DNA of 63,918 nucleotides, counting the filler, from an uncultured bacterium (GTDB lineage: Bacteria > CAYJRR01): NCBI GenBank assembly GCA_964372275.1. It is 3 parts of 3 records of this genome, joined end to end, with 100 filler letters (N's around TTAATTAATTAA, not from the genome) between each part and the next. Parts side by side here need not be neighbours in the genome. Positions count along the whole stretch, not along the records: positions 1 to 29,741 come from CAYJRR010000055.1; 2 more parts are not named here. One strand, given 5' to 3'. The stretch's first letter is position 1; every line of letters starts with the position of its first letter. The notes under the pieces were generated by a model. The model did not search any database. It was not told the origin of the DNA and saw nothing but the letters and a program-made list of their open reading frames with translations. The position numbers and the translations under genes were made by a program. Shown one piece after another: positions 6,810 through 36,693 of this stretch.

Positions 6810-7466
6810 TCAGCGAGGGGGGTAGTGGCCGGAGCGTCCCGACGGACCCGGCGAACGCATCGGTCGGAGGTCCTCGCCCATCGGGACGATCGTCTCACCC
6901 TCGGGACGGGCCGTCCCCGATCGCCTCCGCGACGGACCCCGGAGGGCGCGGACCGCGCGGCGCCCGGTCCGCGCGATCCAGGAGTGCCGCAGCGGGTGGG
7001 GGTAGAGCGCGCCCGATCCCTCGGCCAATCCGACCTCCCCCTGCGCCGCGGCGAGCGCCCCCTTCGGCGTCGGATCGCGGTCGACGCGACGGTAGTCCCC
7101 GCGCAACAACTTCAGCGCCTGCTTCTCGCGCGCGATCTCGCCGCGACTCCAGACGCCGAAGGCACGCAGGAGGGGCGTCAGCGGCTCCGGACGGCGCAGG
7201 CCGTGGGCCAGGAGGATCGCCTGCATCGCGGCCGGCAGCAGGAGCCACCGCCGATCCCGGCGCGAGAGGGCGAGCCCGATCACCGTCGCCAGGGCCGTGC
7301 CCACCTCCACGTACGACTCGATGTCGGGGCAGCGGTCGAGCCTCTTCAACGCCCGATGGATCTCCTCCTTGGGGGCGTTCCGGAACCGCTCCAGGTCGGC
7401 GAGCGTGCGCCGGTCGATCCTCTGGTTGGCGAAAACGGGGCTGTGCTCGCGGATCGCGTCGATCAT
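6810..7466 (-). CDS. DUF2892/YgaP-like membrane protein
   Basis: NQRIDRRT...LD..PDIE....TM hairpin...LLRAFGVWSRGEIAREKQALKLLRGDY resembles this family; start uncertain. Confidence 0.55.
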   Translation of the reverse strand: MIDAIREHSPVFANQRIDRRTLADLERFRNAPKEEIHRALKRLDRCPDIESYVEVGTALATVIGLALSRRDRRWLLLPAAMQAILLAHGLRRPEPLTPLLRAFGVWSRGEIAREKQALKLLRGDYRRVDRDPTPKGALAAAQGEVGLAEGSGALYPHPLRHSWIARTGRRAVRALRGPSRRRSGTARPEGETIVPMGEDLRPMRSPGPSGRSGHYPPR

Positions 7467-7593
7467 GCGAGATCGATTGGTGACCGCGATCACCCCTTGC
7501 AAGCGGAAGAGCCCTCGGTCGCGCTCGCCGCGCGATGCGCCTCGGCGGTAAAGTGGACCTTCCAGCGGTGTTCCATCGTCCGGAGGTCCATCG

Positions 7594-9063
7594 ATGCTCG
7601 CTCGTCGACTCGCGGCCTGCTTCCTTGCGGCGGCCCTCCTCTGCGCGTGCCGCCCGGAGAAGGAGGAGAAACCTCCGACGAACATCGCGGGGTTCTGGTT
7701 CGGCTCCTGGTCCGGTGCCAACGGAAAAGGGAACGCCTTCTACATGGAGCTCGAACAGGAGGACGGCTCCGACGAGGTCCAGGGGACGATCTACTCCTCG
7801 ACCCAGAAGTCCGGGACGGTGACCGGCACCGTGTCGGGGAAGAACTTCGTCCTCGAGGCCGAATACGAGCTGGGCGAGGGCTCGACCGAGACCTACGACG
7901 GCTCCGCCTTTCTGGACGACGTGACCGGCGCCTACAACGGAACCCTGCAGGGCGAAGCGGTGAGCGGCGCGTTCTCGATGACGCCGTCGGAGCTCGCGCC
8001 GTCGACGACGACCGACGTCGAGGCGACGGTGACCGGCCTGGTGGTGGACACCACCGGCAGCCCGGTTTCGGGGGCGACGGTGGTGGTCGGCGTCGGCGAC
8101 GGGCGGAGGCAGGCGACCACCGGCTCCAGCGGGACGTTTTCGCTCTCCGCGGTTCCCGGTGGGCCGCGCGTGGCCGTCGCCTACAAGAGCGGGCTCGCCG
8201 CCGGATTCCAGCCGTTCGTTATCGACGCCGATTCCGAGACGGTCCCGTCGCTGATGCTCCCACCCGCCGCCGGGAATCCGGACGAGGCGCCGACGGTCGG
8301 GACATCGCATCCGAAGGACGGCTTCGAAACCACGAGCAGCGTCATCGTGGCCGAGGGCACGGCGATCGCCGCCGGCGGCAGCCGGGCCGTCGTCTCGATC
8401 AACGAAGGGGAGTACCTGCTGCCGCTCGACGGGACGGCCTTCACCTACGCCCTGATCCTGTCGCGCGGCGTCAACCGCGTCGTGCTCCAGGCGGCCAACG
8501 GCGTGGGCGTGACCGAGAAGACGCTCCTGATGAACGTCGACACGCCGTTCAAGCGGATTCGCGTGACGCTGGTCTGGGACACCGGCAACGCGATCGAGTC
8601 GGGAAACGAGGCGACCGAAAACGACCAGGACATGCACATCTGGTACTACCCGGAGTCGGGGGCCGAGCCGCAACACGCCGCCTATACCGACCAGATCGCC
8701 ATCACCAACGGCGAGATCGACGTCGACAACGTCTGGGGGTTCGGACCCGAGAACTTCACGATGAGCCAGGCGGGGGACGGCACCTACTACGTCGCTGTCA
8801 ACTACTACAGCGGTCCGGTCGACGGTTCGGGCTCCGAGCCGACCAACAACATCATTCGCGTCTCCCTGAACGAGGGGACCGAGGACGAGACGGTGGCGCT
8901 GTACGGTCCGTACCCGTTGACGCAGTCGAACGGGAACTCCGACTACCCGGTCACCGGGCAGACCGCGTCCTGGTGGCGGGTGGTCGACATCGACGTGCAA
9001 GACGGGATCGCGAGCATCGCTCCGGGTACGAATCCGGATCTCTCCATGCAGCTGGAGGACTGA
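7594..9063 (+). CDS. Acidic lipoprotein with carboxypeptidase-like Ig domain and YfaP/DUF2135-like C-terminal domain
   Basis: Lipobox LLCAC; VTLVWD...DQDMHIW...GEIDVDNVWGFGPENFT....GTYYVAVNYY. Confidence 0.75.
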   Translation: MLARRLAACFLAAALLCACRPEKEEKPPTNIAGFWFGSWSGANGKGNAFYMELEQEDGSDEVQGTIYSSTQKSGTVTGTVSGKNFVLEAEYELGEGSTETYDGSAFLDDVTGAYNGTLQGEAVSGAFSMTPSELAPSTTTDVEATVTGLVVDTTGSPVSGATVVVGVGDGRRQATTGSSGTFSLSAVPGGPRVAVAYKSGLAAGFQPFVIDADSETVPSLMLPPAAGNPDEAPTVGTSHPKDGFETTSSVIVAEGTAIAAGGSRAVVSINEGEYLLPLDGTAFTYALILSRGVNRVVLQAANGVGVTEKTLLMNVDTPFKRIRVTLVWDTGNAIESGNEATENDQDMHIWYYPESGAEPQHAAYTDQIAITNGEIDVDNVWGFGPENFTMSQAGDGTYYVAVNYYSGPVDGSGSEPTNNIIRVSLNEGTEDETVALYGPYPLTQSNGNSDYPVTGQTASWWRVVDIDVQDGIASIAPGTNPDLSMQLED

Positions 9064-9099
9064 CGTCCGGCTGCCGCGGCGGCCAGGTTGCCGAAGACG

Positions 9100-9840
9100 T
9101 CATCCGGCGGCGCGGGCGCGGGCGCGATCGGCGAGGACGCGAGGCCAGCGGTCCTTGGTCCAGGGGACGACGGCAAGCCCGTGAGCGCGGGCGAAGCGGA
9201 CGAGCTCGCGAACCTCGCGCAGGCGCGCGCCGACGGCGGCCATCAGCTCCCCTTCCTCGTCGAAGCCGAGCGCCTGGAGCAGCGGCGCGAGATCGTCGTC
9301 CCAGGCGCGGCGCAGGGCGTCGGCGGCCGCCTCGTCGGAGGTCGACTCGAGCGCACCGGCGAACCGGTCCGATCCCCAGCGCTCGAACGCCTCCCGGACC
9401 TCGGACGCGCCGATCATCGTCCCTTCGACGGCGGAGGCGACCGCGAGGATCTCGTCCGGCGTCAGCTCGGGCAGGCGCGTCACCTCGGCCCAGCGGATCA
9501 ACCGGTCGTCGACCGCGGTCTCGTCGCGCTCGTCCGGCGTCCGCGAGAACCAGCGCCACGGCGCTCCGCGGCCGCGAAGGGCGCGCAGGTTCTCCGCCAG
9601 CGGACGACCGCGCAGGGAGCGCCGCGAAAGCGACTCGACCGCGACGTCGAGGCCGGCGAGCTCGGCGGCGGCCGGGCGTCCCGGGACCGGGCCGGCGATC
9701 GGCCGCGCGAGCGGCGCCTTTTCCGAGAGGCGGCGGAGGAGGGCGGAGACCGGCTCGGTCCGCCAGGCGCGGTCGACGCTCTCCAGGTCGACCACGCGAA
9801 GCGACCCTTTGGCGAGGAGCGCGGGCCGGCGGGCGCTCAT
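9100..9840 (-). CDS. Hypothetical protein
   Basis: 246-aa ORF with coding-like composition downstream of purE; no recognised motif. Confidence 0.5.
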   Translation of the reverse strand: MSARRPALLAKGSLRVVDLESVDRAWRTEPVSALLRRLSEKAPLARPIAGPVPGRPAAAELAGLDVAVESLSRRSLRGRPLAENLRALRGRGAPWRWFSRTPDERDETAVDDRLIRWAEVTRLPELTPDEILAVASAVEGTMIGASEVREAFERWGSDRFAGALESTSDEAAADALRRAWDDDLAPLLQALGFDEEGELMAAVGARLREVRELVRFARAHGLAVVPWTKDRWPRVLADRARARAAG

Positions 9841-9883
9841 CGGACGCGGCGTTTCGCGACGCGGAGCATGGACGGGATGCGCA

Positions 9884-10384
<501 letters not shown>

Positions 10385-10397
10385 GGGACGCGCATCT

Positions 10398-10426
10398 TTG
10401 CACGCGAAACGGGGACGCGCTAGGGT
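10398..10426 (+). promoter_or_regulatory. Putative sigma70-type promoter for the 10437 gene
   Basis: TTGCAC-N17-TAGGGT. Confidence 0.45.
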
Positions 10427-10436
10427 GTGGCACGCC

Positions 10437-10916
10437 ATGAGCCGACGGCGCGAAGGCCGAGACCACTACGACCGCCCCTCCTGGAGCGAGATCGACAAGC
10501 GGCGGGGGAAGAAGGGGACCGCCGCCCCCTCCCGACCGCCCCCGGAGCCGAACCGTTACCAGCAGAAGGTGATGGACGAGAAGTTCCACAGCCTCTTCGT
10601 CGATCCGAAGAAGGAGGCCGCCCTCAAGAAGGTCCGGGAGGAGGTGGGGAAGGAGGGGTTCGTTGCGGCGCTCGACGCCTACCACGCCTCGTACGGCCTT
10701 CCCGACGAGTACGATCTCCTGCAGGTGGTGCTCGAGGCCCACCACGCGCCGGCGTTGCGGGTCGCGGCCCTGGAACGGATGGACCAGTCGGTCGACGCGC
10801 AGGCGGAGTCGACGCGAACCGTCTTCAGGAGCCGGGTGAAGCTCCTGGCGCTGACGGCGCGCGAGCCGGCGGTCAAGAAGGCGGCGTCGCGAATCGCCAA
10901 GGCCCGCGGTTTCTAG
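10437..10916 (+). CDS. Hypothetical basic helical protein
   Basis: MSRRREGRDHYDRPSWSEIDKRR..., Lys-rich, coding-like codon usage. Confidence 0.65.
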   Translation: MSRRREGRDHYDRPSWSEIDKRRGKKGTAAPSRPPPEPNRYQQKVMDEKFHSLFVDPKKEAALKKVREEVGKEGFVAALDAYHASYGLPDEYDLLQVVLEAHHAPALRVAALERMDQSVDAQAESTRTVFRSRVKLLALTAREPAVKKAASRIAKARGF

Positions 10917-10932
10917 CGGCGCGGCGAGGCCC

Positions 10933-12351
10933 ATGGAGATCCGACGGGCGGATCGGCGGCGCCATCTGGTCTACCAGATCTTCGTCGATCGTTTCGCCGG
11001 TCCGGAGGGGCGGCCGCTGCCGGCGCCGCCCGACGGCGTCGATCCCTGGCGCCATCACGCCGGGGGTACGCTCGACGGGATCGCGCACCGGCTCGACCAC
11101 CTGGCGTCGCTGGGTGTCGATCTCCTCTACCTCACGCCGATCTTCCGCGCCCCGTCGAACCACAAGTACGACACCGCGAGCTTCGAGGAGGTCGATCCGC
11201 GATTCGGCGGAGAGGCGGCGTTCGACCGACTGGCGGGGGCGGCGCGCGAGCGCGGGATCGGGCTCGTGCTCGACGGCGTCTTCAACCACGTGGGGGAGGA
11301 GCACGGCTGGTTCCGCGACGCGTGCCGCGCCGCGACCTCGCCGTTTTTCCGGTTCTTCCGATTCGCGCGCCATCCCGACCGCTACGACCGGTGGCGCGGG
11401 ATGGGGTGGCTCCCGGAGCTCGACCTCGCGCGCGACGACGTCCGGCGGGCGCTCGCGGAGAGCGAAGGCGCTCCGTTCCGCCGCTGGCTGCGACGCGGCG
11501 CCACCGGGTGGCGGCTCGACTGCGCCAACGACCTCGGACTCCAGACCTGCGGCCTTCTCGCGCGGATCGCGCGGGAGGAGGGGGCGCCGGACGGCGTCGT
11601 CGGCGAGGTGATGGCCTGGGCCGAGGCGTGGCTGCAGGAAGGGGCGCTCGACGGAGTGATGAACTACTGGATGCGCGAGACGGTGCTGGAGGCAGCGGCC
11701 GGCCGGCTTCCCGCCGCCCAGGTCGCGTCGAACCTCGGGCGGATGGCGGAGTCGTGGCGGTGGCCCGCGCTGCTCCGAAGCTGGAACGTGCTCGCCACCC
11801 ACGACACGCCGCGCCTCGCCACGCGCCTCCCCGACCGCCGCGCCCGCCGGCTCGCGCGCCTCTTGGCCTTCACGCTCCCCGGAACGCCGCACCTCTACTA
11901 CGGCGAGGAGATCGGGATGGAGGGGGGCGACGATCCGGCGAACCGGAACCCGATGGAATGGGACGACGCACGCTGGGACCGCGAGACGTTGGAGGAGACG
12001 CGGACGCTCGCTCGGCTGCGCCGCGAGCGCGTCGCGCTGCGGGAGGGTCGCTTTCTTCCGATGCCGCAGCCGGGCCTGCCCTGGCTGTTCGCCTTCGCGA
12101 GGGTCACCGAACATCCGGAGGAGGCGACGCTGGTCGCGGTGAACCTGTCGGGAACGCCGCAGCGGGGTCGCGCCTTCCTCCCGTATTCGTGGTTCCTCGA
12201 CGCCCTCCCGCTGGCCGACCGGTGGGGCGGCACCGCGGGCGGAAAGGTGACGGGCGGGGCGGTGGAGATCGCGTTGGAGCCGTGGCAGGGGGTGGTGTGG
12301 GTGCCGGAGGACGGGGCGATCGAGGGATACCGCTTTTTCAAGCGGACGTGA
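10933..12351 (+). CDS. Glycoside hydrolase family 13 (neopullulanase/cyclomaltodextrinase/maltodextrin glucosidase-like)
   Basis: YQIFVDRF, SNHKYDT, LDGVFNH; catalytic motifs GWRLDCAN, VGEVM, THDTPR; YYGEEIG. Confidence 0.92.
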   Translation: MEIRRADRRRHLVYQIFVDRFAGPEGRPLPAPPDGVDPWRHHAGGTLDGIAHRLDHLASLGVDLLYLTPIFRAPSNHKYDTASFEEVDPRFGGEAAFDRLAGAARERGIGLVLDGVFNHVGEEHGWFRDACRAATSPFFRFFRFARHPDRYDRWRGMGWLPELDLARDDVRRALAESEGAPFRRWLRRGATGWRLDCANDLGLQTCGLLARIAREEGAPDGVVGEVMAWAEAWLQEGALDGVMNYWMRETVLEAAAGRLPAAQVASNLGRMAESWRWPALLRSWNVLATHDTPRLATRLPDRRARRLARLLAFTLPGTPHLYYGEEIGMEGGDDPANRNPMEWDDARWDRETLEETRTLARLRRERVALREGRFLPMPQPGLPWLFAFARVTEHPEEATLVAVNLSGTPQRGRAFLPYSWFLDALPLADRWGGTAGGKVTGGAVEIALEPWQGVVWVPEDGAIEGYRFFKRT

Positions 12352-12407
12352 CCGCGGGCGGTGGCACGCTGACTTTTCGGTGCCGGCGGGGCTACGCTCT
12401 CGGCGAG

Positions 12408-13499
12408 ATGCGTCGCGCACTTGCCGGGCTCGCCGTCGCCACCCTCGTCTCCTCCTGCTCCCTCGAGTCGCTCGACCCCTTCCACACCCAGTTCGACGAC
12501 GTCGAGCCGGCCAAGCGCTACTACCGGAGCACGCCCGTACCCGCGCCGGGAGTCGTCACGACGCTCACGGTGATGAGCTGGAACGTGAAGTTCGGCGGCG
12601 GGCGGATCGACTTCTTCTGGGACTGCCACGGCGACCGCACCAACATGTCGCGCGGCGAGGTGCTCTCCAACCTGGAGGCGCTGGCGGAGAAGATCGAGCA
12701 GGTCGATCCCGACATCCTGTTGCTGCAGGAGGTCGACGTCGAGTCGAAGCGCTCGGACTACCTCGACCAGGTGCAGTGGCTGCTCGACCACGGCCGGCTC
12801 AACGAAGGGGCCTACGCCTCGCAGTGGAAGGCCGACTACGTCCCCGGCGACGGGATCGGACGGGTCGACTCCGGGAACGCCGTCTTCTCCCGCTGGCCGA
12901 TCAACTGGGCGTTGCGCCACTCGCTGCCGTTGATCGCCTCCGACGACGCGCTCACCAACTACTTCTACCTGAAACGGAACATGCTCGAGGTGAGCGTCGA
13001 CCTGCCGGGCCTCGACGACTTCCGGATCGTCGCCACGCACACCGAGGCCTACGCCGACGACGGGACGAAGAAGAAGCACGTCGACCGGTTCAAGGCCAAG
13101 CTCGACGAGCTCGCCGCCGAGGGGGTCCTGTTCATCGCCGGCGGCGACCTCAACACCCTTCCTCCGGGAAGCGAGCAGGTGAGCGACTTTCCCGATTCGG
13201 TCTGCGAGGGGCGCTTCGAAGGGGACGACTTCAGCGAGGAGACCGACTACCTCTATCCGCTCTACCAGACCTACGAGGCGGAGACGCCGCTCGCCGACTA
13301 CCTGGCCGACAACGATCCCTACTTCACCTTCACCTCCGACAAGAACGGGTTCTGGAGCCGCAAGCTCGACTACCTGTTCACCAACGGCGACTTCGTGCCT
13401 GGCAGCTCGATCACCCATCAGGACGAGGAGTCGGGCGGTATGGAGACGATGAGCCGGTCGGACCATGCGCCGATCAGCGTGGAGCTCGACCTGCCGTGA
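12408..13499 (+). CDS. Endonuclease/exonuclease/phosphatase (EEP) family lipoprotein
   Basis: Lipobox LVSSC; MSWNVK, LLQEVD, GNAVFSRWP, ATHTEA, GGDLN, KLDYLF, SDHAP. Confidence 0.9.
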   Translation: MRRALAGLAVATLVSSCSLESLDPFHTQFDDVEPAKRYYRSTPVPAPGVVTTLTVMSWNVKFGGGRIDFFWDCHGDRTNMSRGEVLSNLEALAEKIEQVDPDILLLQEVDVESKRSDYLDQVQWLLDHGRLNEGAYASQWKADYVPGDGIGRVDSGNAVFSRWPINWALRHSLPLIASDDALTNYFYLKRNMLEVSVDLPGLDDFRIVATHTEAYADDGTKKKHVDRFKAKLDELAAEGVLFIAGGDLNTLPPGSEQVSDFPDSVCEGRFEGDDFSEETDYLYPLYQTYEAETPLADYLADNDPYFTFTSDKNGFWSRKLDYLFTNGDFVPGSSITHQDEESGGMETMSRSDHAPISVELDLP

Positions 13500-14332
13500 A
13501 GGCACCCGTGGCGTGGACGGCGGCTCGACCCCTGTTCGCGGCGCTGGCCGTCGCCGTGCTTTCGGTCGTCGCCCGGCCGGTCGCGGCGCGGGCGGAGGAG
13601 GGTGCGCCCGTCCGGCCGGCGATCGCGGACGGAACCTGGAGCGCCGACTCGGCGGCGGTGCTGCCGCGCCGGCGAGTCGAGGTCGGCCTGCTCTCCGAGA
13701 CGCGGATCAGCCTCGGCGGGCGGTTCGAGCTGTCGACGCAGCCGTGGCTCGACCTGCTGCGGTTGCCGAACGTCGGCGTGAAGGCGCGGCTCGCGGATCG
13801 CGGGAGTTGGGTGCTCGCCGCCAAGACGACGCTCTCCTACCCGACGCCGTTCCTGAAATCGTTCGCGCACCGCGGCCCGTTCGGGATCCTCCCGGAGGAC
13901 CAGCCGATCCCGCAGCTGGTGGCGGCGCATGCGCGCCTGCTGGTGACCGCGCGGCCGAACGCCGGCCGGGAGCTGACGCTGGAGGCGGGTGCGCGGCTGG
14001 CCGCGCAGGTGGGCGAGAACGGGATGTCGTCGATCGACCTGCCGATCCTGTTCCCGCGCACCTCGGCCTACCTGCACGGCGCCACCCTGCAGGCCGGACT
14101 CGACACCCGCGCGCGCGTCGTCGGCCGGCTGTGGGCGCACGGCGACCTCGATCTGTTCGTGATGCGGGATCCCCGCGGACGGTACGCCGCCGAGTATCGG
14201 CTGCTCGCGGCGTGGCTTGGCCACCGCTTCGCGGTGGAGGCGGGCGTCAAGGGCACGCACGGGGAGTATCCGTTCGGGACGCAGGAGCACCTCCTTCCCT
14301 ACGTCGACGTCCAGGTCGCCTTCGGCGGCTGA
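13496..14332 (+). CDS. Putative outer-membrane beta-barrel protein
   Basis: GTGA overlap with the EEP gene; signal peptide; amphipathic strands; terminal strand LPYVDVQVAF. Confidence 0.6.
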   Translation: MKAPVAWTAARPLFAALAVAVLSVVARPVAARAEEGAPVRPAIADGTWSADSAAVLPRRRVEVGLLSETRISLGGRFELSTQPWLDLLRLPNVGVKARLADRGSWVLAAKTTLSYPTPFLKSFAHRGPFGILPEDQPIPQLVAAHARLLVTARPNAGRELTLEAGARLAAQVGENGMSSIDLPILFPRTSAYLHGATLQAGLDTRARVVGRLWAHGDLDLFVMRDPRGRYAAEYRLLAAWLGHRFAVEAGVKGTHGEYPFGTQEHLLPYVDVQVAFGG

Positions 14333-14335
14333 CGG

Positions 14336-14995
14336 TCACGGGGCCGGCGGTGGCGCGGCCTCCGTGGCGCGCAGCACCTCCGCGACCCGGAACAGGTCCT
14401 GCGTGAAACGGGCCCGCTCCGCGCGGCGCGAGCGGTCGTCGGGGGCGTGGAGGATCGCGGAGGGATGGACCGTCGCCACGGTGTGCGGCGCGTAGGGGGA
14501 GGGCACGAGCTCGCCCCGGCGGCGCGTGACGCGGAACTCCGGTCCGAGCACGGCGCGCGCCGCCGTCGATCCCAGGCAGACGAGCACCGCCGGCCGGATG
14601 CGCTCCAGCTCGGCGAGGAGCCAGGGGAAGCAGGCCTCGACCTCCCGCGCGCTCGGTTTCTTGTGGAGGCGCCGGCCGCCGGCGGGTGTCCACTTGAAGT
14701 GCTTCACCGCGTTGGTGACGTAGACGACGCTCCGGTCGATCCCGACCGCCGCCAGCGCGCGATCGAGCTCCCGGCCCGCCGGACCGACGAAGGGACGCCC
14801 GGCGAGGTCCTCTTCGTGACCCGGCTGCTCGCCGACCATCACGATCCGCGCCGACGCGCTCCCTTCCCCGAAGACGGTCTGCGTGCCGCTCCTCCACAAG
14901 GGACAGGCGCGGCAACCCGCGGCCGCGAGGCGGAGCGACGGGAGCGTCCGGACGGCGGGAACGGGGGCCGGCGGGAAGGTCTCGCGTCGCGCCAC
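14336..14995 (-). CDS. udgX: UdgX-type uracil-DNA binding/glycosylase (family 4 UDG, 4Fe-4S)
   Basis: CRACPL, GEQPG, PFVGPAG, TNAVKHFK, RRLHKKP (R-loop His of UdgX), TVHPSAIL; GAGGAG RBS before GTG. Confidence 0.88.
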   Translation of the reverse strand: MARRETFPPAPVPAVRTLPSLRLAAAGCRACPLWRSGTQTVFGEGSASARIVMVGEQPGHEEDLAGRPFVGPAGRELDRALAAVGIDRSVVYVTNAVKHFKWTPAGGRRLHKKPSAREVEACFPWLLAELERIRPAVLVCLGSTAARAVLGPEFRVTRRRGELVPSPYAPHTVATVHPSAILHAPDDRSRRAERARFTQDLFRVAEVLRATEAAPPPAP

Positions 14996-15006
14996 GTCGT
15001 CTCCTC

Positions 15007-15846
15007 GTGCGCATTCGAAGCGACGTGATCCACGTCGGTACCAGCGGCTACGCCTACCCCCACTGGAGCGAGGTCCTGTATCGCGGCGTCCCGACCTCGC
15101 GCCGGCTGGAACGCTACGCGCGCGAGTTCTCCACCGTCGAGATGAACGCCACCTTCTACCGCCTTCCGACGCCGGCGGCGGCAACCCGTTGGCGCGATGC
15201 CACCCCGGACCGGTTCGTCTTCGCCGTCAAGGGGAGCCGGTTCCTGACGCACATGAAGCGCCTGACCGACACCGGTCGCGGTCTCGACCGCTTCTTCTCG
15301 AGGGTCGACCACCTGGGACCGAAGCTGGAGGTCGTCCTCTGGCAGCTGCCGCCGCAGATGGCCCACGTCGATCCCGGCCGGCTGGAACGGTTCCTGCTCG
15401 CGCTGCCGGGGGGCGTCCGGCACGCGGTCGAGTTCCGGCACGAGGCCTGGTATCGCGACGAGGTGGCCCGTCTGCTCGATCGTCACGGCGTCGCCTTCTG
15501 CGAGCACGACCTCGTCGACGCGCGCCCGCCGCGCGCGACCGGCGGATTCCGCTACCTGCGCTTCCACGGCGCGAGCGCTCCCTACGCCGGCCGCTACGGA
15601 AGGCGCGCGCTGGAGCCGGTCGCCCGGGGACTGCGCGCATGGTCCCGATCCGGACGGACCGCCTACGTCTACTTCAACAACGACACCGGTGGTCACGCCG
15701 TGCGCGATGCGCGCGCGCTGCGGGAGTTGCTCGGTCCCGCGGCCTACCGGGCGTCGAGCCAGCCGTCCAGGAACGCCGCCCGCGCCGCCGTCGCCGCGCG
15801 GATCGAGTCGTGCGCCGCGTGGAACTCGTCGAGCGTGAACGGATAG
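15007..15846 (+). CDS. DUF72 (YecE-like) protein
   Basis: IHVGTSGYAY, VEMNATFYRLP, FAVKGSRFLTH, LWQLPP, VEFRH..W, YLRFHG, YVYFNND; start may be GTG 15025. Confidence 0.92.
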   Translation: MRIRSDVIHVGTSGYAYPHWSEVLYRGVPTSRRLERYAREFSTVEMNATFYRLPTPAAATRWRDATPDRFVFAVKGSRFLTHMKRLTDTGRGLDRFFSRVDHLGPKLEVVLWQLPPQMAHVDPGRLERFLLALPGGVRHAVEFRHEAWYRDEVARLLDRHGVAFCEHDLVDARPPRATGGFRYLRFHGASAPYAGRYGRRALEPVARGLRAWSRSGRTAYVYFNNDTGGHAVRDARALRELLGPAAYRASSQPSRNAARAAVAARIESCAAWNSSSVNG

Positions 15847-16940
15847 TTCGGGTCGGACTCGACGGCCGCTTCGATCTGCGCCGCGAACCGGCCGATCTTC
15901 TCGTCGATCGCCGCCGGATTGTAGACGGCGCGGACGGCGGCGACGGCGTCGACGAACCGCTGGCGCCATACGGGGTCGGCGAGCACGGCGACCTGGTGCG
16001 GCGGCAGACCGGACAGCTCCTCGCCGTACTCGTCGTAGTAGACGACGCCGTACGGATCGGCATCGGCCGGCATCCAGTCGAACGTTCCGTCCTTGTCCCA
16101 GGGGACGAAGAGGAAGCCGCGCTGCGGATGGTCGTAGAGGTAGAAGTTGTGTCCGGCGCTCCAGTAGCCGTCCGCGTCGGGCAGCGTCGCCTCGGCCGCC
16201 CACTCGAGGACGGCGCCTTCCAGATCGGCGAGGGCGTCGATCGCCGCGACGTCGTTCGCCTGCCAGAACTGCTCGATCCGCACGCCGTCGGAGGTCTGTT
16301 CGTTGGTCTTGAGGTCGGTTCCGTACTTCCACAGGTCCCCGCCGGCCTGGCCGGGGAAGTTCCGCTGGAGGAACTCCTTGTCCAGGAACTCGATGTTGGT
16401 GAAGACGCCGTAGAGCGATCCGTTCAGGGTGAGCGTCGCGCTGTTGGCGCACGCGGCCGGGAGGCCGACCTCCCGGAACAGGTCGAGCGCGAGGCGGTCC
16501 TTGAGCAGCGACGGGTCGTAGGGCGGCGCGTCGAGCGCGATCTTGCGCAGTCCGTGGAAGCGCGCGTCGGAGTCGACTTCGTTGAACGAGATCACGAACT
16601 GCATCTTTCCGGACCAGGAGCAGCAGGGGTTCCCCTTGAGGCGCATGCGGGCGTCGGGGACGACCTCCTCCTCGCCGTCGGGTCCGACGTAGCGGAAGAG
16701 GATGGGGTGGTACGGCTTGAGCGGCAGTCCGTTCGCCTCCCGCTCCGCCCAGTTCGCGAACTCGTCCTGGAGCGCCGCCCACTCGCCGTCGGCGATCTCG
16801 ACCCGGTAGTCGACGAGCCGGTCCTCGTCGTAGAGGTCGGCGCAGCGGCCGGCGGGGACCGCCCCCCCCGGCGGGTCGAGCGAACCGCATGCGGCGACCA
16901 GCAGCGGAACGACGATCGCGCAACCCGATGGCCGAGCCAT
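15744..16940 (-). CDS. CotH-family protein kinase, lipoprotein (paralogue 1)
   Basis: Lipobox LVAAC; RLKGN, KIALD, LYGVFTNIE, DGYWSAGHNFYLY, VPWDKD; GGGAGGGG RBS. Confidence 0.85.
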   Translation of the reverse strand: MARPSGCAIVVPLLVAACGSLDPPGGAVPAGRCADLYDEDRLVDYRVEIADGEWAALQDEFANWAEREANGLPLKPYHPILFRYVGPDGEEEVVPDARMRLKGNPCCSWSGKMQFVISFNEVDSDARFHGLRKIALDAPPYDPSLLKDRLALDLFREVGLPAACANSATLTLNGSLYGVFTNIEFLDKEFLQRNFPGQAGGDLWKYGTDLKTNEQTSDGVRIEQFWQANDVAAIDALADLEGAVLEWAAEATLPDADGYWSAGHNFYLYDHPQRGFLFVPWDKDGTFDWMPADADPYGVVYYDEYGEELSGLPPHQVAVLADPVWRQRFVDAVAAVRAVYNPAAIDEKIGRFAAQIEAAVESDPNYPFTLDEFHAAHDSIRAATAARAAFLDGWLDAR

Positions 16941-16969
16941 GGCATCCCCTCCCTTCTTCTTCCAAGGGG

Positions 16970-16985
16970 AGCAAGGCGCGTGCCT
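16970..16985 (-). promoter_or_regulatory. Putative sigma54 (-24/-12) promoter for CotH paralogue 1
   Basis: Minus strand reads AGGCACGCGCCTTGCT = GG-N10-GC, 30 nt before the ATG. Confidence 0.6.
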
Positions 16986-17027
16986 GGCGTCCGGCCGGCG
17001 GAGGTCCATCCTCCGTGCGGAGGTTCC

Positions 17028-17432
17028 ATGGCGATCGACTACTCCACCGACGACCTGCGCCGAAAGCTGGCCGATTCGCGCGATCGGTTCGCGCTGGTCG
17101 ACACCTTGCCGCGCGCCTCGTACGCCAACCGACACCTTCCGGGGGCGATCTCCCTTCCGCTCGAAGAGATCGAGGCGCGGGCCGACGCGATCCTTCCCGA
17201 ACGCGATGTCGAGGTCGTGACCTACTGCAGCGGGCCGACCTGAACGCGCTCGACGCAGGCCGTGCGCCTGCTGGAAGCGAAAGGGTATCGGCGCCTCGGC
17301 CACTACGGCGGCGGAATCCGGGAGTGGCGCCGCGCCAACCTTCCGTTCGACACCGGACGCGAGCGGAGCCTCCGGCCCGAGGAGCGTCGCGTCGCGGAGG
17401 GGCCGGCGGCGCCGGAGCGACCGGTGCCGTAG
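17028..17432 (+). CDS. Rhodanese-domain protein, probable selenoprotein (UGA at codon 72, 17241-17243, read as Sec), 134 aa
   Basis: GGAGG RBS; LVDTLP...Y..RHLPGAISLP...VVTYCSGPT-UGA-TRSTQAVRLLEAKGYRRLGHYGGGIREW..ANLP: the rhodanese domain continues in frame past the UGA to a TAG. Confidence 0.85.
17255..17271 (+). promoter_or_regulatory. Candidate bacterial SECIS hairpin
   Basis: GCAGGC-CGUGC-GCCUGC stem-loop starting 11 nt after the UGA; G at loop position 2 followed by U. Confidence 0.65.
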
Positions 17433-17531
17433 GGGCCCGGAGAACGACGCGGGTGACGCGTTTCGGGTTTCGCGTCGTCCAAGATGGAGGATATCGCGCA
17501 CCCTTCGGTCGCGTGATGGCCGGCACGACGC

Positions 17532-17599
17532 GGAGTCCCGCGACGCCGTTGGAGTCCCGACGCCGCGCCGACCTCCGTCGCTGGAGTCCCGACCCCGCG
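17532..17599 (+). repeat. Three direct repeats of GGAGTCCCG (candidate enhancer-binding-protein sites)
   Basis: Copies at 17532, 17551 and 17583; copies 2 and 3 extend to TGGAGTCCCGAC(G/C)CCGCG (17/18 identical), 32 bp apart. Confidence 0.6.
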
Positions 17600-17696
17600 G
17601 TCCGCGCGTGACGGCGCGCACGCGCTGGAGCCGCCGGCCTCCGATCGGACGACGGCCACGTGGCGGTCCGCACGATCGCCGGCCGGAGCCGGCGTC

Positions 17697-17712
17697 CGGC
17701 GCGACGGTTGCA
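17697..17712 (+). promoter_or_regulatory. Putative sigma54 promoter for the VTC operon
   Basis: CGGCGCGACGGTTGCA = GG-N10-GC with TTGCA at -12, about 28 nt before the ATG and GGGAGGG RBS. Confidence 0.55.
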
Positions 17713-17740
17713 CTTCCCTCGAGAGCGGGAGGGACGGGCG

Positions 17741-18496
17741 ATGGCGATGCCGGCGGTGGAGAGCGAGCTTCCGGAGCGCGAGAGCAAGTTCGTCGTGACG
17801 GCGGAGACGCTGGACGACTTCCTGGCGCGGGCCGACGGGAACCTGGTGGAGTTCGCGTACGACCGGAGCCGTCCGGTCGCGTGGACGCGCACCACCTACC
17901 TCGACACCGACGACCTGTTCTTCTATCGGCGCTCCCTGCGCGGCGCGGCGCGCCGCCTCCGCATCCGCGAGTACGCCTCCTCGACGAGCGTGCGCGGTCC
18001 GGCGCGGCTCACCGGTCATTGCCGGCTGGAGCTGAAGGTGAGCGAAGGGGAGGGGCGCCGCAAGGTGGCCTACGAGGCGCCGGCGGAGGCGATCGCGGAA
18101 CTGGTGGAGCGCCAGGGTGACCTCGATGCCCGGTGGGACGCCTTCCTCGCTCCGTCGACCGCGCTGGCCGCCTTCCGGCGGGAGCTCCGTCTCCTCCGCC
18201 CGACGCCGCGGTTGACCGTCTTCTACCGCCGGCGGTCGTTCCGAGGCGCCGGCGGCGCCGTCCGCGTGACGCTCGACGAGGACGTCTCCTTCTGCCTGCC
18301 GACCGGCGTCGGGCGTGCGGGGGAGGCGGCCCGCCCGGACCACGAAGTGGGCTGCTTCCGACGGGGGATCCTGGAAGTGAAGTGCCTGGAGGGGGAGGCG
18401 CCCGACTGGCTCGTCGCGGCGATGGAGGACCTTCCGCCGGCGTCGGTCTTCTCAAAATACGTCCTCGGCATGCGCCGGATCGTGGGGACGCCGTGA
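17741..18496 (+). CDS. VTC-domain (polyphosphate polymerase-like, CYTH tunnel fold) protein
   Basis: RESKF (ExK), TTYLDTDDL, RLRIREY, LELK, VFYRRRSF, RVTLD, ILEVK, FSKY. Confidence 0.88.
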   Translation: MAMPAVESELPERESKFVVTAETLDDFLARADGNLVEFAYDRSRPVAWTRTTYLDTDDLFFYRRSLRGAARRLRIREYASSTSVRGPARLTGHCRLELKVSEGEGRRKVAYEAPAEAIAELVERQGDLDARWDAFLAPSTALAAFRRELRLLRPTPRLTVFYRRRSFRGAGGAVRVTLDEDVSFCLPTGVGRAGEAARPDHEVGCFRRGILEVKCLEGEAPDWLVAAMEDLPPASVFSKYVLGMRRIVGTP

Positions 18497-19512
18497 AGTC
18501 GCTGGTCCTCGCGGCGTCGGTCCTCGCGCTCGGCGGGCGCGTCGGCACGCGACAAGGGTTCGAGGCGGTTCCGGCCGGTCCGGCGGCGGCGTCCTCCCCG
18601 TCGTGGGTGGCGGGCGAGCCGCGGTTCGACGCCAAGCTGGAGGCGAGCCTGCGCCTGGCGCGGCTCCGCGCGGTGGTCGAGGCCAAGGCGAAACGCGATG
18701 GCGATCGTGGCGAGCTCGCGCTCGGCGACGCCTTCCTCTCCGCCGACCTCGGGCGCCGCGTCACCGCGCGCGGGGGATCGTTCAAGCTGCCGATCTCGGC
18801 GCTGGACGGCACCTCCTCCTGGACCCTTCCGACGATCCGTCGCGGCGAGATCGCGGCCCTGTTCGGCGATGAGTTCGAGATCGGCGGTCGGCACGTCGGG
18901 GGCGAGGTGGCGTTCGAGCCGCGCGTCGGGGCCCGGCCGTCGGTCCGGATCGGGGTCTGGAACGCGGCGCCGGTCTCGGCGGGGGACGGGACGGCGACGT
19001 CGGGAGAGGTGATCTCCGGCCGGATCGGCGTCTCGCCGGGCCGATTCGATCTCGGGATGTCGGCCGCCTCCCGGAGCGCGGCGGTCGGCGGGAGCCGCTC
19101 GCACTACGACCTGGTCGGAATCGACCTGGCGTTCGACGCGCACGGCGTTCGCGTCTGGACCGAGGCGCTGGGCGGTTCGTCGTGGCTCGACTACGACCCG
19201 GGGGACGGTCGGGACGCCACGATGGCGTCGGCGCGCGCGGTCGTCGCCTACCGGATCGGCGGCCGGTCGGAGCGTGCCGCGTACGTCGAAGCGTGGGGAT
19301 CCGCGGGGATCCTCGACCCGGATCTCGTCATCCGCCGCGATGCGGTCGAGGAGCGGTCGGTCGGTCTCAACGTCGGGCAGTGGCGGGCGTGGCGCGCGCA
19401 GGCCGGGATCGAGGAGCGCCGCCGGGATCGGAACCTGCCCGATGCGCTCGGAGGGAAGGGGCGCGTCGACGTCGACCGAACGGCGCGGGTGCAGCTCGGA
19501 CTCTCGTTCTGA
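18493..19512 (+). CDS. Porin, OprO/OprP (phosphate-selective)-like
   Basis: GTGA overlap; hydrophobic N-terminus; LGDAFL...GSFKLPIS motif typical of Porin_O_P-like barrels; C-terminal VQLGLSF. Confidence 0.6.
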   Translation: MKSLVLAASVLALGGRVGTRQGFEAVPAGPAAASSPSWVAGEPRFDAKLEASLRLARLRAVVEAKAKRDGDRGELALGDAFLSADLGRRVTARGGSFKLPISALDGTSSWTLPTIRRGEIAALFGDEFEIGGRHVGGEVAFEPRVGARPSVRIGVWNAAPVSAGDGTATSGEVISGRIGVSPGRFDLGMSAASRSAAVGGSRSHYDLVGIDLAFDAHGVRVWTEALGGSSWLDYDPGDGRDATMASARAVVAYRIGGRSERAAYVEAWGSAGILDPDLVIRRDAVEERSVGLNVGQWRAWRAQAGIEERRRDRNLPDALGGKGRVDVDRTARVQLGLSF

Positions 19513-19515
19513 CGA

Positions 19516-21315
19516 ATGGCGGAGGGGGCGATGGGGGAGGGTGCGATGTTCGTCGTCTTCGAGGGGATCGACGGCTCCGGCAAGACGACGCTCTCCAACC
19601 GCGTGGCCGCGGCGTTGCGCGCGCGGGGCCTGAGCGTCGAACACGTGCGCGAGGGGGGCGCCTTCCCCTCGAAGGTCGTCGGAGGGATCCGCGACTTCAC
19701 CCGCGAGATGCGGAACGTCGAGCTGGTGCCCGAGGCGGAGCTCCTCCTCTACGCCGCGCGCGAGGCGCAGCTTCTCCGGGAGGTGACCGTCCCGGCGCTG
19801 GCGCGCGCGGAGGTGGTGATCGCCGACCGGTTCGTCTACACGGCCGAGGTGCTGGCGCGGCACGGCCGCGGGCTGCCGGCGGAGCGGGTCGCCCCGGTGG
19901 TCGAGGCCGCCGCAGGAGGCATCGAGCCGGCGCTGGTGGTGCTGGTCGACGTCGACCCGCTGATCGCCCGGATCCGGCGGAAGGTGTCGAAGATCGTCCA
20001 ACCCGATCCACGGCCGGCCTCGCGCAAGGGCCTCTCGGGCCGAGGTCTCCAGAACCGTCTCCGCGAGGGGTACCGGGAGATGGCGGCGCGCCGCGGATGG
20101 ACGGTGGTGGAGAACACCGACCGGCCGCTCGACGAGACCGAACGGTTCGTCGTCGAGCGGATCCTCGCCGCGCGGGGTCCGGCGCGGAACGAGGCGGCGT
20201 CGTTCGCGTCCCCGCCGCGTTCGTCCGACGGCCGGGCGGGCGGCGTCCGGTCGGAGGCCGACGCGCTCGAGCGCTTCGTCGACTGGATCGACCGCCGAGC
20301 GGCGCAGGAGGCGCCGTTGGCGGCGGCCCTCCTCGCAGGACTGGCCGGGCCGGCCGTCGACGCGCGCCGCGAGCGGCTCGCCGAAGTCTCGCCGGCGGTG
20401 ATCGCCAACGGGATCCGCGGGATGACCGACCCCGTCTCCTGGCGCCTCCGCCGCGCGCTCGCGGAGCGCGTTCCCGGCGCCGTCGCCCGGTCGCTGGCGG
20501 GGCGCGCCTTCTTCGACGCCGAGGCGGGACGGCTGCGCGGGCGGCTTTCGGCCGTCGCCCCGTCGGAGGTGCTGCATTCGATCGACGGGCGGGATACCGA
20601 CGAGAGCTGGGCGCTCCGCGAGGGCTTGTTCGGGGCGGCGCCGGCCTCGGCGGTCGGTTCGCTCAAGAGGTTGGCAGGGGGACGTGCGTGGGCGATGCGG
20701 GAACGCTGGATCGCCGAGCGCGGCGGAACGGAGGCGATGCGCGAGACCCTGACGGCGACCGTCGCCGCCCGGTCGGTCACCGCGCTCGACGACGATCGCG
20801 CGTGGGAGATCCGCGACCTCGCCCTGGAGGCGGCGCCGGCCGCGACGATCGAGTCGCTGGCGGGCGTCGCCTCCGAACGGTCCTGGGCGCTGCGCCGGCG
20901 GTTCCTGGAGGTCGCGCCGAAGCCGGTGATGCGTTCGCTCCTGGGGCTCGACGACCCGCGGGCGACGGCCCTCCGGGAGTCGGTCGCCGATTGCGTGCCG
21001 GAGGCGCTCGACTCGCTGGCGGGACTGGACGGCGCCGACGCGTGGAGATTGCGGCTTTCCGCCTCGGAGCGCTGGCCGGTCTCGGCCGCGATGAGCCTCG
21101 GGGGATTGAAGACCGGGGCGGAAGGCCGGGCTTTCGTCCGGCGCCTCCTCGCCGCGCATCCGGACGAGCCGCTGCTCTGGCGCGCGGCGGCGGCGATCCG
21201 GCTCGCCGACATCCGCGCGGAGCTCGAGGCGGCGATCCATTTCGACGACGAGCGGCCCCGGGTCGAACGGCCGCCGGCGGCGATCGACGCCCCACTTCGG
21301 GAGGAGCGCGCATGA
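19516..21315 (+). CDS. Thymidylate-kinase-like P-loop kinase fused to about 8 helical (HEAT-like) repeats
   Basis: FVVFEGIDGSGKTT, ELLLYAAR, VIADRF; C-terminal repeats of P....SL.G.D...AW.LR; true start may be 19531 or 19546. Confidence 0.85.
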   Translation: MAEGAMGEGAMFVVFEGIDGSGKTTLSNRVAAALRARGLSVEHVREGGAFPSKVVGGIRDFTREMRNVELVPEAELLLYAAREAQLLREVTVPALARAEVVIADRFVYTAEVLARHGRGLPAERVAPVVEAAAGGIEPALVVLVDVDPLIARIRRKVSKIVQPDPRPASRKGLSGRGLQNRLREGYREMAARRGWTVVENTDRPLDETERFVVERILAARGPARNEAASFASPPRSSDGRAGGVRSEADALERFVDWIDRRAAQEAPLAAALLAGLAGPAVDARRERLAEVSPAVIANGIRGMTDPVSWRLRRALAERVPGAVARSLAGRAFFDAEAGRLRGRLSAVAPSEVLHSIDGRDTDESWALREGLFGAAPASAVGSLKRLAGGRAWAMRERWIAERGGTEAMRETLTATVAARSVTALDDDRAWEIRDLALEAAPAATIESLAGVASERSWALRRRFLEVAPKPVMRSLLGLDDPRATALRESVADCVPEALDSLAGLDGADAWRLRLSASERWPVSAAMSLGGLKTGAEGRAFVRRLLAAHPDEPLLWRAAAAIRLADIRAELEAAIHFDDERPRVERPPAAIDAPLREERA

Positions 21316-21965
21316 ACCCGTTCCAGACGATCGCGGACCCGACCCTCGGCGGAATCGACGTTCCGCTCACGGAGATGCTGCTCCGGCTTCTGGTGACCCT
21401 CGCCCTCGCGTCGGCGATCGCCTACCGGCCATGGCGGCGGGCGCTCGCGCAGACGGCACCGCTCTCGGTCGAGACGGCGCAGGCGCAGGTGATCATCGCC
21501 GTCGCCGGCGCGCTGATGGTGATCGTGATCGGCGACAGCACCGCGCGCGCGTTCGGACTGGTTGGTCTCGGCGCCTTCATCCGCTTCCGTTCCGGGATCA
21601 AGGATCCCCGCGACGCGGCGGTCATGTTCGTGATGATCGGCGTCGGGATGGCGACCGGGCTCGGGTTGTTCGCGGTGGCCGCCCTCGCCACCGCCTTCGT
21701 CGGCGGCGTGCTGGTCGCGCTCGACGCCACCGCGGGGCGCCGTCCCCGGACGATGACCGTGGGGATCGACCTGCTCGATCCCGCGGGGGCGCTGGCGGGG
21801 ATCCGCGCCGCGCTCCCCGGCAGCCGCGTGCTGGAGACCGGGGACAAGGGATCGATGGTGCTCGAGGTGGCGACCGACCGATCGCTCGACGCCGAGTCGT
21901 TGCTCGCCACGCTCCGCGATCAGGGCGTCGGCGGGATCCGTCGCGTCTCGCTGTCGAACGACTGA
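21312..21965 (+). CDS. DUF4956 (MgtC/SapB-like) membrane protein
   Basis: ATGA overlap; ARAFGLVGLGAFIRFRSGIKDPRD..VMF..IGVGMATG signature. Confidence 0.88.
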   Translation: MNPFQTIADPTLGGIDVPLTEMLLRLLVTLALASAIAYRPWRRALAQTAPLSVETAQAQVIIAVAGALMVIVIGDSTARAFGLVGLGAFIRFRSGIKDPRDAAVMFVMIGVGMATGLGLFAVAALATAFVGGVLVALDATAGRRPRTMTVGIDLLDPAGALAGIRAALPGSRVLETGDKGSMVLEVATDRSLDAESLLATLRDQGVGGIRRVSLSND

Positions 21966-21981
21966 AGGGAAAGGAACGACC

Positions 21982-23187
21982 ATGTCCGCGAACCGACTCG
22001 TGACCGTCCTGTGGCTCGGCGCGCTCTCCGCCTGCAACGGCCTGACCCCGCCCGGCCTGATCGTGGGCGATGACGACGACGATGACGGAGGCGGCGGCAA
22101 CGGCAACGGCGCGTGCCACGCGATCTACGACCCGGCGCGGTTTCCGACGTTCGAAGTGGAGATCTCCTCCGGCGAGCTCGCCGCCTTGCAGGACGAGTTC
22201 ACCAACTGGCAGCAACGCGAGATCGATGGCCTCCCGCTCAAGCCCTACCACCCGGTCGTCTTCCGCTACCAGGGAGAGTCCTACCCGGACGCCCGGATGC
22301 GGCTCAAAGGGAACCCCTGCTGCTCCTGGTCGGGGAACAAGATGCAGTTCGTCATCTCCTTCAACGAGGTGAATCCGGAGGGGCGGTTCCGGGGGCTGCG
22401 GAAGCTGGCGCTCGACGCGCCGCCGTACGACGCGAGCCTCCTCCACGACCGCCTCGCGTACAGCGTCCTGCGCGATGCCGGACTCCCGGCCGCGTGCGCC
22501 AACAGCGCCAGGCTCGAGATCAACGGCGAGCTCTACGGCGTGTATTCGAACATCGAGTTCCTGAACAAGGATTTCCTGAAGCGGAACTTCCCCGGCAAGG
22601 CGGGGGGGACGCTCTACAAGTACGGCTTCGAGCCGGTCACCAACGAGGAGACCTACGAAGCCGGCCGGCGGGACGCTTTCTGGGCGGCCGCCGATCTCGC
22701 CGAGCTGGACGGGTTGGCCGACCTCGATCGGATCGTCCGGGAGTGGGCGGGGGAGGCGGTGCTGCCGCACGCCGACGGGTTCTGGGCCGGATCGGGGAAC
22801 TTCTACCTCTACGATCACCCGACGCGCGGGTTCCAGTTCGTGCCGTGGGATCTCGACTATTCGTTCGAGCTCGCGCCGGTCGGCGTCGACCCCTTCGCCT
22901 ACACCGTGGAGTGGGGATCGGCACCACCGATGATCGAGATGGTCTTCGCCGACGCCGGTTGGAGGGCGCGCTTCGTCGACGCCGTCGCGGCGGTGCGCGC
23001 GGAGTACGATCCGCAGACGCTCCAGGCGCGGATCGATGCCTGGTCGGCGCAGATCGACACGAGCCTTCGCGCCGATCCGAACAAGCCGTTCAGCGACGAG
23101 GAACACGGCGCGGCGGTCGCGTCGCTGCGCGCCTACGTCGGTGACCGGGCGGCGTTCCTCGACGAGTGGATCGCCGCCAATCGGTGA
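21982..23187 (+). CDS. CotH-family protein kinase, lipoprotein (paralogue 2)
   Basis: Lipobox LSAC, Asp/Gly linker; RLKGN, DGFWAGSGNFYLY, VPWDLD; strongly similar to 15744-16940. Confidence 0.88.
   Translation: MSANRLVTVLWLGALSACNGLTPPGLIVGDDDDDDGGGGNGNGACHAIYDPARFPTFEVEISSGELAALQDEFTNWQQREIDGLPLKPYHPVVFRYQGESYPDARMRLKGNPCCSWSGNKMQFVISFNEVNPEGRFRGLRKLALDAPPYDASLLHDRLAYSVLRDAGLPAACANSARLEINGELYGVYSNIEFLNKDFLKRNFPGKAGGTLYKYGFEPVTNEETYEAGRRDAFWAAADLAELDGLADLDRIVREWAGEAVLPHADGFWAGSGNFYLYDHPTRGFQFVPWDLDYSFELAPVGVDPFAYTVEWGSAPPMIEMVFADAGWRARFVDAVAAVRAEYDPQTLQARIDAWSAQIDTSLRADPNKPFSDEEHGAAVASLRAYVGDRAAFLDEWIAANR

Positions 23188-36602: not shown

Positions 36603-36693
<91 letters not shown>

Follow-up and report, generated by a model that had tools for sequence, protein, structure and literature searches.

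Positions 17028-17432 of a 63,918-nucleotide (nt) stretch of DNA from an uncultured bacterium (GenBank assembly GCA_964372275.1; the whole stretch of about 64 kb is called the window below) carry, on the plus strand, a rhodanese gene whose reading frame is crossed by a TGA codon predicted to encode selenocysteine (Sec, U). The ATG at 17028 opens a frame that runs from MAIDYSTDDL to VEVVTYCSGPT and then meets the TGA as codon 72, after which 62 further codons follow in the same frame (TRSTQAVRLLEAKGYRRLGHYGGGIREWRRANLPFDTGRERSLRPEE...) up to a TAG at 17430-17432. In support of this start, the alignments with homologues begin at residue 1. The initial annotation, made from the sequence alone, had described both a frame break at YCSGPT-TGA in the middle of a domain and the completion of the rhodanese fold by 62 codons beyond it, and both were recovered. 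When translated through the TGA, the protein matched the Pfam Rhodanese model PF00581 over residues 7-102 (E 3.9e-13, 50.1 bits, gathering score 22.2), which places the TGA inside the domain. The GC content at the first, second and third codon positions was the same on the two sides of the TGA, with 0.69, 0.48 and 0.86 before it, and 0.71, 0.57 and 0.86 from there to the end of the domain. The features of the gene, including a putative selenocysteine insertion sequence (SECIS), are as follows:

17019..17023, plus strand: Shine-Dalgarno-like GGAGG, 4 nt ahead of the ATG (read from the sequence)
17028..17432, plus strand: complete predicted selenoprotein gene of 134 codons including Sec72, then the TAG stop (translation with TGA as U)
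17046..17333, plus strand: rhodanese homology domain, residues 7-102, extending across the TGA (Pfam PF00581)
17226..17228, plus strand: TGC for Cys67, the canonical catalytic cysteine that opens the active-site loop (alignment)
17241..17243, plus strand: UGA as predicted Sec72 of the loop C-S-G-P-T-U-T-R-S (relatives mostly share the TGA)
17255..17271, plus strand: putative SECIS-type hairpin, a 6-bp stem GCAGGC/GCCUGC with the apical loop CGUGC (sequence and folding)
17346..17381, plus strand: C-terminal tail motif FDTGRERSLRPE, residues 107-118, confined to the Myxococcota-type clade (alignment)

As judged from its sequence, 17028-17432 is very probably an intact gene for a 134-residue, single-domain rhodanese selenoprotein, which would probably be cytoplasmic. 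A scan of 16700-17800 for promoters and terminators found none.

The TGA codon in related genes

DNA of relatives was taken from one scan of a species-representative genome collection, in which 146 loci were confirmed and the best 80 kept. The ranking was seeded with the own motifs of the window's rhodanese subfamily and the sample is its top, so that the following counts describe the close family and not all rhodaneses. The motif could be located in 79 of the 80 loci, and the codon aligned with the window's TGA was TGA in 72, TGC in four and TGT in three of them, while TAA and TAG did not occur. In the 80th locus (L078, Nonomuraea) the first cysteine is absent and the loop reads YSTDSAC. All 72 TGA genes continue in frame with about 40 or more conserved codons. 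The TGA form is spread over several phyla and includes the three nearest relatives of the window protein (L001-L003), whose read-through genes are 58-63% identical to it. The initial annotation had proposed that homologues be inspected for Cys or TGA at codon 72, and had reasoned that a recent nonsense mutation or sequencing error would leave TGC or TGT in all relatives. This argument against a selenoprotein fails, because the relatives mostly have TGA. It had also referred to a rhodanese subfamily with a second cysteine in YCxxxxC, and such proteins were indeed found: full-length homologues from large protein collections carry Cys at the aligned position (P0003-P0006 and P0011, with YCSGPTC, YCGSAAC and similar loops), and BH2092 (PDB 3nhv) has YCWGPAC.

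Selection on the two halves of the gene was compared in the 69 loci with TGA that do not belong to the window's clade (2346 pairs), with 36 codons after the TGA set against 35 before it. The mean proportions of nonsynonymous and synonymous differences (pN and pS) were 0.132 and 0.642 downstream of the TGA and 0.183 and 0.708 upstream of it. In pairs of the window gene with L001-L003, the nonsynonymous and synonymous rates (dN and dS) of the downstream block were 0.26-0.34 and 0.82-1.1, respectively. Purifying selection on the downstream half is as strong as on the upstream half, and the low downstream pN and dN indicate that this half is clearly translated; the relaxed selection that would have spoken for a pseudogene was not seen.

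A protein search in a shorter length class returned 15 proteins, comprising 13 N-terminal pieces and two C-terminal halves (P0171 and P0173) that start near ...VRLL. The 13 N-terminal pieces have 61-71 residues and all terminate exactly at ...YCSGP(T/R/G). They include the 71-residue fragment of the window itself; two are the 70-residue GenBank entries MGC4115042.1 and HEY3452496.1, named only 'rhodanese-like domain-containing protein', and 10 further ones are metagenomic and known at the protein level only (P0086, P0163-P0168, P0172, P0174 and P0175). Several of the short proteins lie on long contigs (1.18 Mb, 161 kb and 22.8 kb) and hence were not cut by contig ends. The expectation that standard annotation would split or truncate such genes thus came true in the form of 13 predicted proteins ending at the TGA position. 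Furthermore, no NCBIfam model reached its cut-off with the proteins of the window, L014 (Geobacteraceae) or L017 (Pyrinomonadaceae), so that the Prokaryotic Genome Annotation Pipeline, whose selenoprotein names come from these models, cannot rescue such genes. The correct annotation of the locus would be one 134-residue selenoprotein, not a 71-residue fragment or a pseudogene, and the same correction would apply to many genomes, with 72 species-representative genomes carrying the TGA form among the best 80 of the 146 relatives, two of which have GenBank records with truncated products of 70 residues.

Hairpins after the TGA and decoding of the codon

The strongest RNA signal came from the same 69 loci outside the window's clade, in which a hairpin that we call the Acidobacteriota type, with a 7-bp stem and the loop CGUGAAYU, starts 14 nt past the TGA. 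In the alignment of its stem, 95.8% of cells were paired, and four of the seven pairs were changed on both sides (18 cells). These values were reached by none of 500 shuffles, and sliding one partner by 1-3 columns lowered the pairing to 25-76%. RNAalifold, when run unprompted, predicted the same helix. Some of the covariation falls on synonymous third positions (GCU...GCA vs GCC...GCG). The arginine codon in the loop was CGT in 64 of the 69 loci, whereas CGT accounts for 26 of the 207 other Arg codons of these genes; the excess reflects selection on the RNA, which keeps G-U in the apical loop.

A covariance model built from the 69 loci was also applied to the genes with cysteine at position 72. 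At L005:10211-10258 the SECIS is intact (61.5 bits), at L041:10211-10258 the sequence is kept with three of seven pairs broken (27.2 bits), and in the remaining Cys-form loci the model found no match at the site. In the tree, L005 is nested among Sec forms; five changes between Sec and Cys are needed, one of them forced by starred branches, with their direction not fixed. L005 and L041 look like replacements of Sec by Cys caught at two different ages.

The hairpin of the window itself is the one that the initial annotation had pointed out, i.e., six base pairs and a CGUGC loop beginning 11 nt past the UGA. Its parts are GCAGGC (17255-17260), the loop (17261-17265) and GCCUGC (17266-17271), the distance from UGA to loop is 17 nt, and the 17-nt hairpin alone has a folding energy of -9.7 kcal/mol. 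In a quick maximum-likelihood tree the window grouped with L001-L003, three Myxococcales/Myxococcota metagenome-assembled genomes (MAGs), with a Shimodaira-Hasegawa-like approximate likelihood ratio test (SH-aLRT) value of 98. These four sequences share a hairpin in a slightly shifted register, with the stem in alignment columns 15-20 and 26-31 and the loop CGUGC; all 24 of 24 stem cells are paired, and at one pair the change is compensatory, the window having C-G where L001-L003 have G-C. Both hairpin types begin their loop with CGUG. The initial annotation had also suggested a check against the bacterial SECIS (bSECIS) model. The model given in the legend to Fig. 2 of PMC13188914 has a loop of 3-9 nt, a stem of 4-16 bp, a G among the first two nucleotides of the loop, a distance of 16-37 nt between UGA and loop, and a minimum free energy of at most -7.5 kcal/mol. 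The element at 17255-17271 agrees with it on each point, having a 5-nt loop with G at position 2 followed by U, and a 6-bp stem, at the spacing and energy stated above.

The window's clade also differs in its C terminus, where the consensus FDTGRERS(L/I/V)(R/H)PE stands in place of a tail with an H-x-H motif. The clade's motif is common to L002, L003, P0014, P0134, P0171 and P0173, of which P0014 and P0134 are metagenome-derived. The H-x-H motif (E-S-E-H-K-H type) was seen among the read-through genes of L004-L080, in 62 of the 72 genes with the TGA form, usually at or near the end.

On this basis, the window gene in all likelihood encodes a selenocysteine rhodanese. In translation, UGA72 would be recoded to selenocysteine with the hairpin at 17255-17271 serving as a bacterial SECIS, to which, by the established bacterial mechanism, SelB carrying Sec-tRNA(Sec) would bind. 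Several observations weigh against such decoding. Hairpin stability, tried as evidence, had to be rejected: a 65-nt stretch gave z = 0.61 relative to dinucleotide shuffles, 143 of 200 of which folded equally well or better. Rfam reported no SECIS family at its gathering score anywhere in the window, and at E <= 10 returned for 17180-17340 a single chance match, to M23 (12.4 bits). The Acidobacteriota-type covariance model found no match at the TGA of the window or of L001-L003, which leaves homology of the two hairpin types unsupported, and we treat them as separate SECIS variants. The compensatory pair of the window type was reached by 135 of 500 shuffles and is not significant, four sequences being too few. 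Finally, the 64-kb window contains no tRNA-Sec (its tRNAs are one for Arg and two for Ser), and Pfam found no selA, selB or selD domains among 44 window open reading frames (ORFs), which had been chosen by eye from 55 codon-bias-filtered frames. Neither of the tRNA-Ser genes (anticodons GCT and TGA) is a tRNA-Sec; both are neighbours of a seryl-tRNA synthetase gene, at 36475-38654.

In DNA of 71% GC the window's hairpin is no better than chance and alone proves nothing, but the comparative signal exceeds chance. It is this comparative evidence that decides for the selenoprotein reading proposed by the initial annotation, and not the hairpin alone: (i) the TGA is conserved, (ii) cysteine alternates with it, (iii) purifying selection acts on the part past the TGA, and (iv) a conserved hairpin in the same place shows compensatory changes, most clearly in the 69 Acidobacteriota-type loci. 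At least one carrier of the gene family is demonstrably equipped for Sec. The Acidobacteria MAG of L063, which has the TGA form, encodes, on the contig of the rhodanese gene and about 9 kb from it, a tRNA-Sec (15691-15789) that was identified by ARAGORN and also by Rfam RF01852 (65.4 bits, gathering score 47). In the same locus a second candidate selenoprotein gene, CMD/AhpD-like and on the minus strand (~11880-12553), has an in-frame TGA in C-H-Y-U and reads on for about 90 residues. L063 is the one locus among the 80 in which a tRNA-Sec accompanies the rhodanese gene. Its stretch 6078-16401 also contains genes for an ArsS radical SAM protein, another CMD protein, a GT2 glycosyltransferase, a fatty-acid hydroxylase and a pyridine nucleotide-disulfide oxidoreductase.

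Among the alternatives, the one that survives best holds that near-cognate or suppressor decoding inserts Cys or Trp at UGA72, or that the Sec pathway inserts Cys there at low selenium, and that the read-through product is an ordinary YCxxxxC-type rhodanese. It would fit the failure to find Sec machinery in the 64-kb window and the fact that Cys works at this position in seven of 79 relatives. However, decoding through SelB requires just such a hairpin as is conserved here, with G-U in its loop and at the spacing of a SECIS, and L063 has both a tRNA-Sec and a CxxU gene on the contig of its rhodanese. TGA is also the usual stop of the window, ending 19 of its 27 long ORFs, from which it follows that the code has not been reassigned genome-wide. 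We consider this explanation improbable.

Less probable still is a pseudogene or sequencing error, in which a recent change of TGC or TGT to TGA in an ordinary YCxxxxC rhodanese would have left the downstream half untranslated. Such a change needs a single base, Cys-form homologues exist, the hairpin is ordinary for its GC content and no Sec machinery was seen in the window; yet the TGA recurs in 72 of 79 loci from several phyla, nearest relatives at 58-63% identity included, purifying selection acts on the downstream half, and the hairpin with its G-U loop is conserved at synonymous sites. A split gene, in which a 71-residue N-terminal piece and a separate C-terminal piece starting at GTG 17262 would assemble afterwards, could appeal to the 56-codon ORF from that GTG and to the C-terminal pieces P0171 and P0173 predicted by gene callers, but deserves next to no credence, as the stop is TGA in 72 of 72 cases with TAA and TAG absent, full-length homologues have Cys at the aligned site, no start is conserved past the TGA in the aligned loci (the column has CTG or ATG and lies inside the 3' flank of the hairpin), and the break would fall within the active-site loop.

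The window was also scanned for in-frame TGA codons with coding bias on both sides, and only those at 17241 and 19510 emerged. The second, 19510-19512, was rejected as another selenoprotein site: it is the normal stop of the ORF 18133-19512, and the next gene, which is thymidylate-kinase-like and starts with MFVVFEGIDGSGKTT about 35 nt later, is in the same frame by chance.

With selenocysteine as the preferred reading of UGA72, the gene marks its source organism, which is probably a member of the Myxococcota by its place in the tree, as a likely selenium user.

Genomic neighbourhood

The rhodanese gene is flanked by two genes that we place outside the system:

15747..16940, minus strand: divergent CotH-domain gene (Pfam CotH, 5.6e-27)
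17660..18496, plus strand: VTC-domain gene, 228 nt downstream (Pfam VTC, 7.8e-18)

They belong to a CotH/VTC cluster at 15747-23184, whose second CotH gene occupies 21757-23184 on the plus strand. Between the two CotH genes lie the VTC gene, the ORF 18133-19512, which has no Pfam match, and a 600-codon frame (19513-21312) with a thymidylate-kinase-like N terminus. The initial annotation had remarked on the position of the rhodanese inside a VTC/CotH locus, for which the related loci gave no comparative support. A tblastn search with nine window neighbours against the 80 related loci returned one weak Tmk match (E 1.3e-4) and nothing else. A functional link of the rhodanese to CotH and VTC was rejected, there being no synteny in these loci. 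The neighbours of L001-L003 differ from one another as well as from those of the window, and include an acyl-CoA dehydrogenase with a TPM-domain protein, or ferredoxin-like proteins with an epimerase. As far as sequence comparison goes, the rhodanese gene appears to stand alone, and its place between CotH and VTC appears incidental.

In the Acidobacteriota branch, a gene for an ArsM-like methyltransferase directly follows in 11 of the 80 loci, about 110 nt past the rhodanese stop (351 bits with NF040538, under the cut-off of 500), and a radical SAM gene of the ArsS (seleno)protein family (TIGR04167, 451.8 bits, cut-off 300) lies within about 3.5 kb in seven of the 80; examples of ArsM/ArsS loci are L073:2522-3682 and L019:7432-8439. 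This adjacency hints at an organoarsenic link for the Acidobacteriota branch only, and not for the window.

Active-site loop, proposed chemistry and known relatives

Cys67 is invariant in the 63 sequences of alignment A5 (63 of 63) and aligns with the Cys of PDB 6mxv and of P0007-P0010. In the same alignment, position 72 holds Sec or Cys, and position 75 Ser, each in at least 90% of the sequences. The loop YCSGPTUTRS is two residues longer than the YCGGGF--RS of P0007-P0010 and PDB 6mxv, and Sec72 stands five residues past Cys67. Canonical rhodaneses that act as sulfurtransferases have a six-residue loop of the CRxGx(R/T) type. The loop of the window protein does not conform to this six-residue pattern.

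These features suggest a reaction in three steps: (i) Cys67 would take up sulfane sulfur (or selenium) as a persulfide, (ii) the selenolate of Sec72 would attack this persulfide to give a Cys-Sec selenenylsulfide or a relay intermediate, and (iii) thioredoxin or glutathione would reduce the intermediate. The enzyme might accordingly be described, tentatively, as a sulfurtransferase or a reductase of persulfides that carries its own resolving selenol. A bolder proposal, which we regard as doubtful, is that C-x4-U on a lengthened loop defines a catalytically distinct class, i.e., a Sec-dependent reductase of persulfides or polysulfides (or of a metalloid) and not a simple sulfur carrier, and that the Acidobacteriota branch could serve organoarsenic (or organoselenium) biosynthesis. 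Three observations speak against the proposed chemistry: no partner gene is conserved among the related loci; P0014, which is 55% identical to the window protein, has Ser at position 72; and P0134 has neither loop cysteine. The latter two proteins, which carry the tail of the window's clade, may be non-catalytic paralogues. Among soil Acidobacteriota and Myxococcota, the C-x4-U rhodanese family appears to be widespread, with its genes systematically cut short in public records. The window protein would offer a compact single-domain model for Cys-x4-Sec chemistry on a rhodanese loop.

As to the RNA element, the window hairpin resembles the SECIS of Escherichia coli fdhF in that it directly follows the UGA, has a small apical loop with G-U, and is 17 nt away from the UGA at its loop. 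Its 11 nt between UGA and stem equal the spacing in fdhF. It differs in that no bulged nucleotide is evident and no Rfam family matches.

At the protein level, GlpE and PspE (PDB 1gmx and 2jtq) share the fold family and the position of the catalytic Cys, and their matches are weak (31 bits for PspE models) and below the family cut-offs; their loop lacks two residues by comparison, as well as any second Cys or Sec. The Bacillus halodurans protein BH2092 (PDB 3nhv and 3o3w) agrees with the window protein in its domain and in the lengthened loop, where a second Cys stands at +5 (ITYCWGPACNGAT vs TYCSGPTUTRST). It has Cys in place of Sec, thus no UGA and no SECIS, and its PDB name states no function.

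Rhodanese-related selenoproteins have been listed from 2005 on, as stated in the parts consulted of PMC13188914, PMC9312934, PMC1088965, PMC2398784, PMC1976440, PMC1794560 and PMC5877670. The window gene thus opens no new category. In the table of the 2026 review PMC13188914, five rhodanese forms appear (UxxS, UxxG, CxU, UxxG and UxxxxU). Membership in form 3 (CxU) is not indicated, as its model NF041203 (rhodanese_LYCAU) gave 27.4 bits with a cut-off of 115 and the motif of the window protein is C-x4-U. Form 5, UxxxxU, is the rhodanese-like selenoprotein TsoB (PMC13188914, as tabulated), whose model NF045694 was the best NCBIfam match of the window protein (residues 6-119 to profile positions 47-168, E 4.1e-13, 48.3 bits, cut-off 805). 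The U-x4-U spacing of TsoB equals that of C-x4-U, whereas the window protein has no part like the DsbD of this rhodanese/DsbD fusion-like protein, contains one Sec and is 134 residues long compared with a 572-position profile; there is also no Tso operon near its gene. If the UxxxxU of TsoB lies in its rhodanese part, both loop positions could, by analogy, be occupied by Sec.

One of the closest known systems is form 1 (UxxS; example WP_010941598.1), which the consulted parts of PMC13188914 and PMC9312934 attribute to Zhang and Gladyshev 2005 and give as predicted by computation only. This agrees with the initial annotation, according to which Sec-containing rhodaneses had been predicted computationally and were barely characterized. 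The literature searched yielded, as far as its listed entries and excerpts go, no experimental study of a Cys-x4-Sec pair on a rhodanese loop, and the entries listed for rhodanese, selenocysteine and Acidobacteria contained nothing on the window's rhodanese family; in the searched passages of PMC13188914 neither Acidobacteriota nor Myxococcota occur. When the Geobacteraceae member was used as the seed of a search, no annotated Sec-bearing RefSeq record was returned. With form 1 the window protein has in common a single Pfam Rhodanese domain and one Sec followed by x-x-Ser (U72-T-R-S75), and the family of the window gene also includes L014 (YCSGPT-U-SAS), from a Geobacteraceae MAG. From this overlap in motif and taxon we infer that the window protein is probably a member of form 1. 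Its clade is set apart from the rest by the other register of its hairpin, by the loop CGUGC and not CGUGAAYU, and by the FDTGRERSxxPE tail. What is new is a Myxococcota clade member with its own predicted SECIS variant and its own tail, within a family that is already known by computational prediction.

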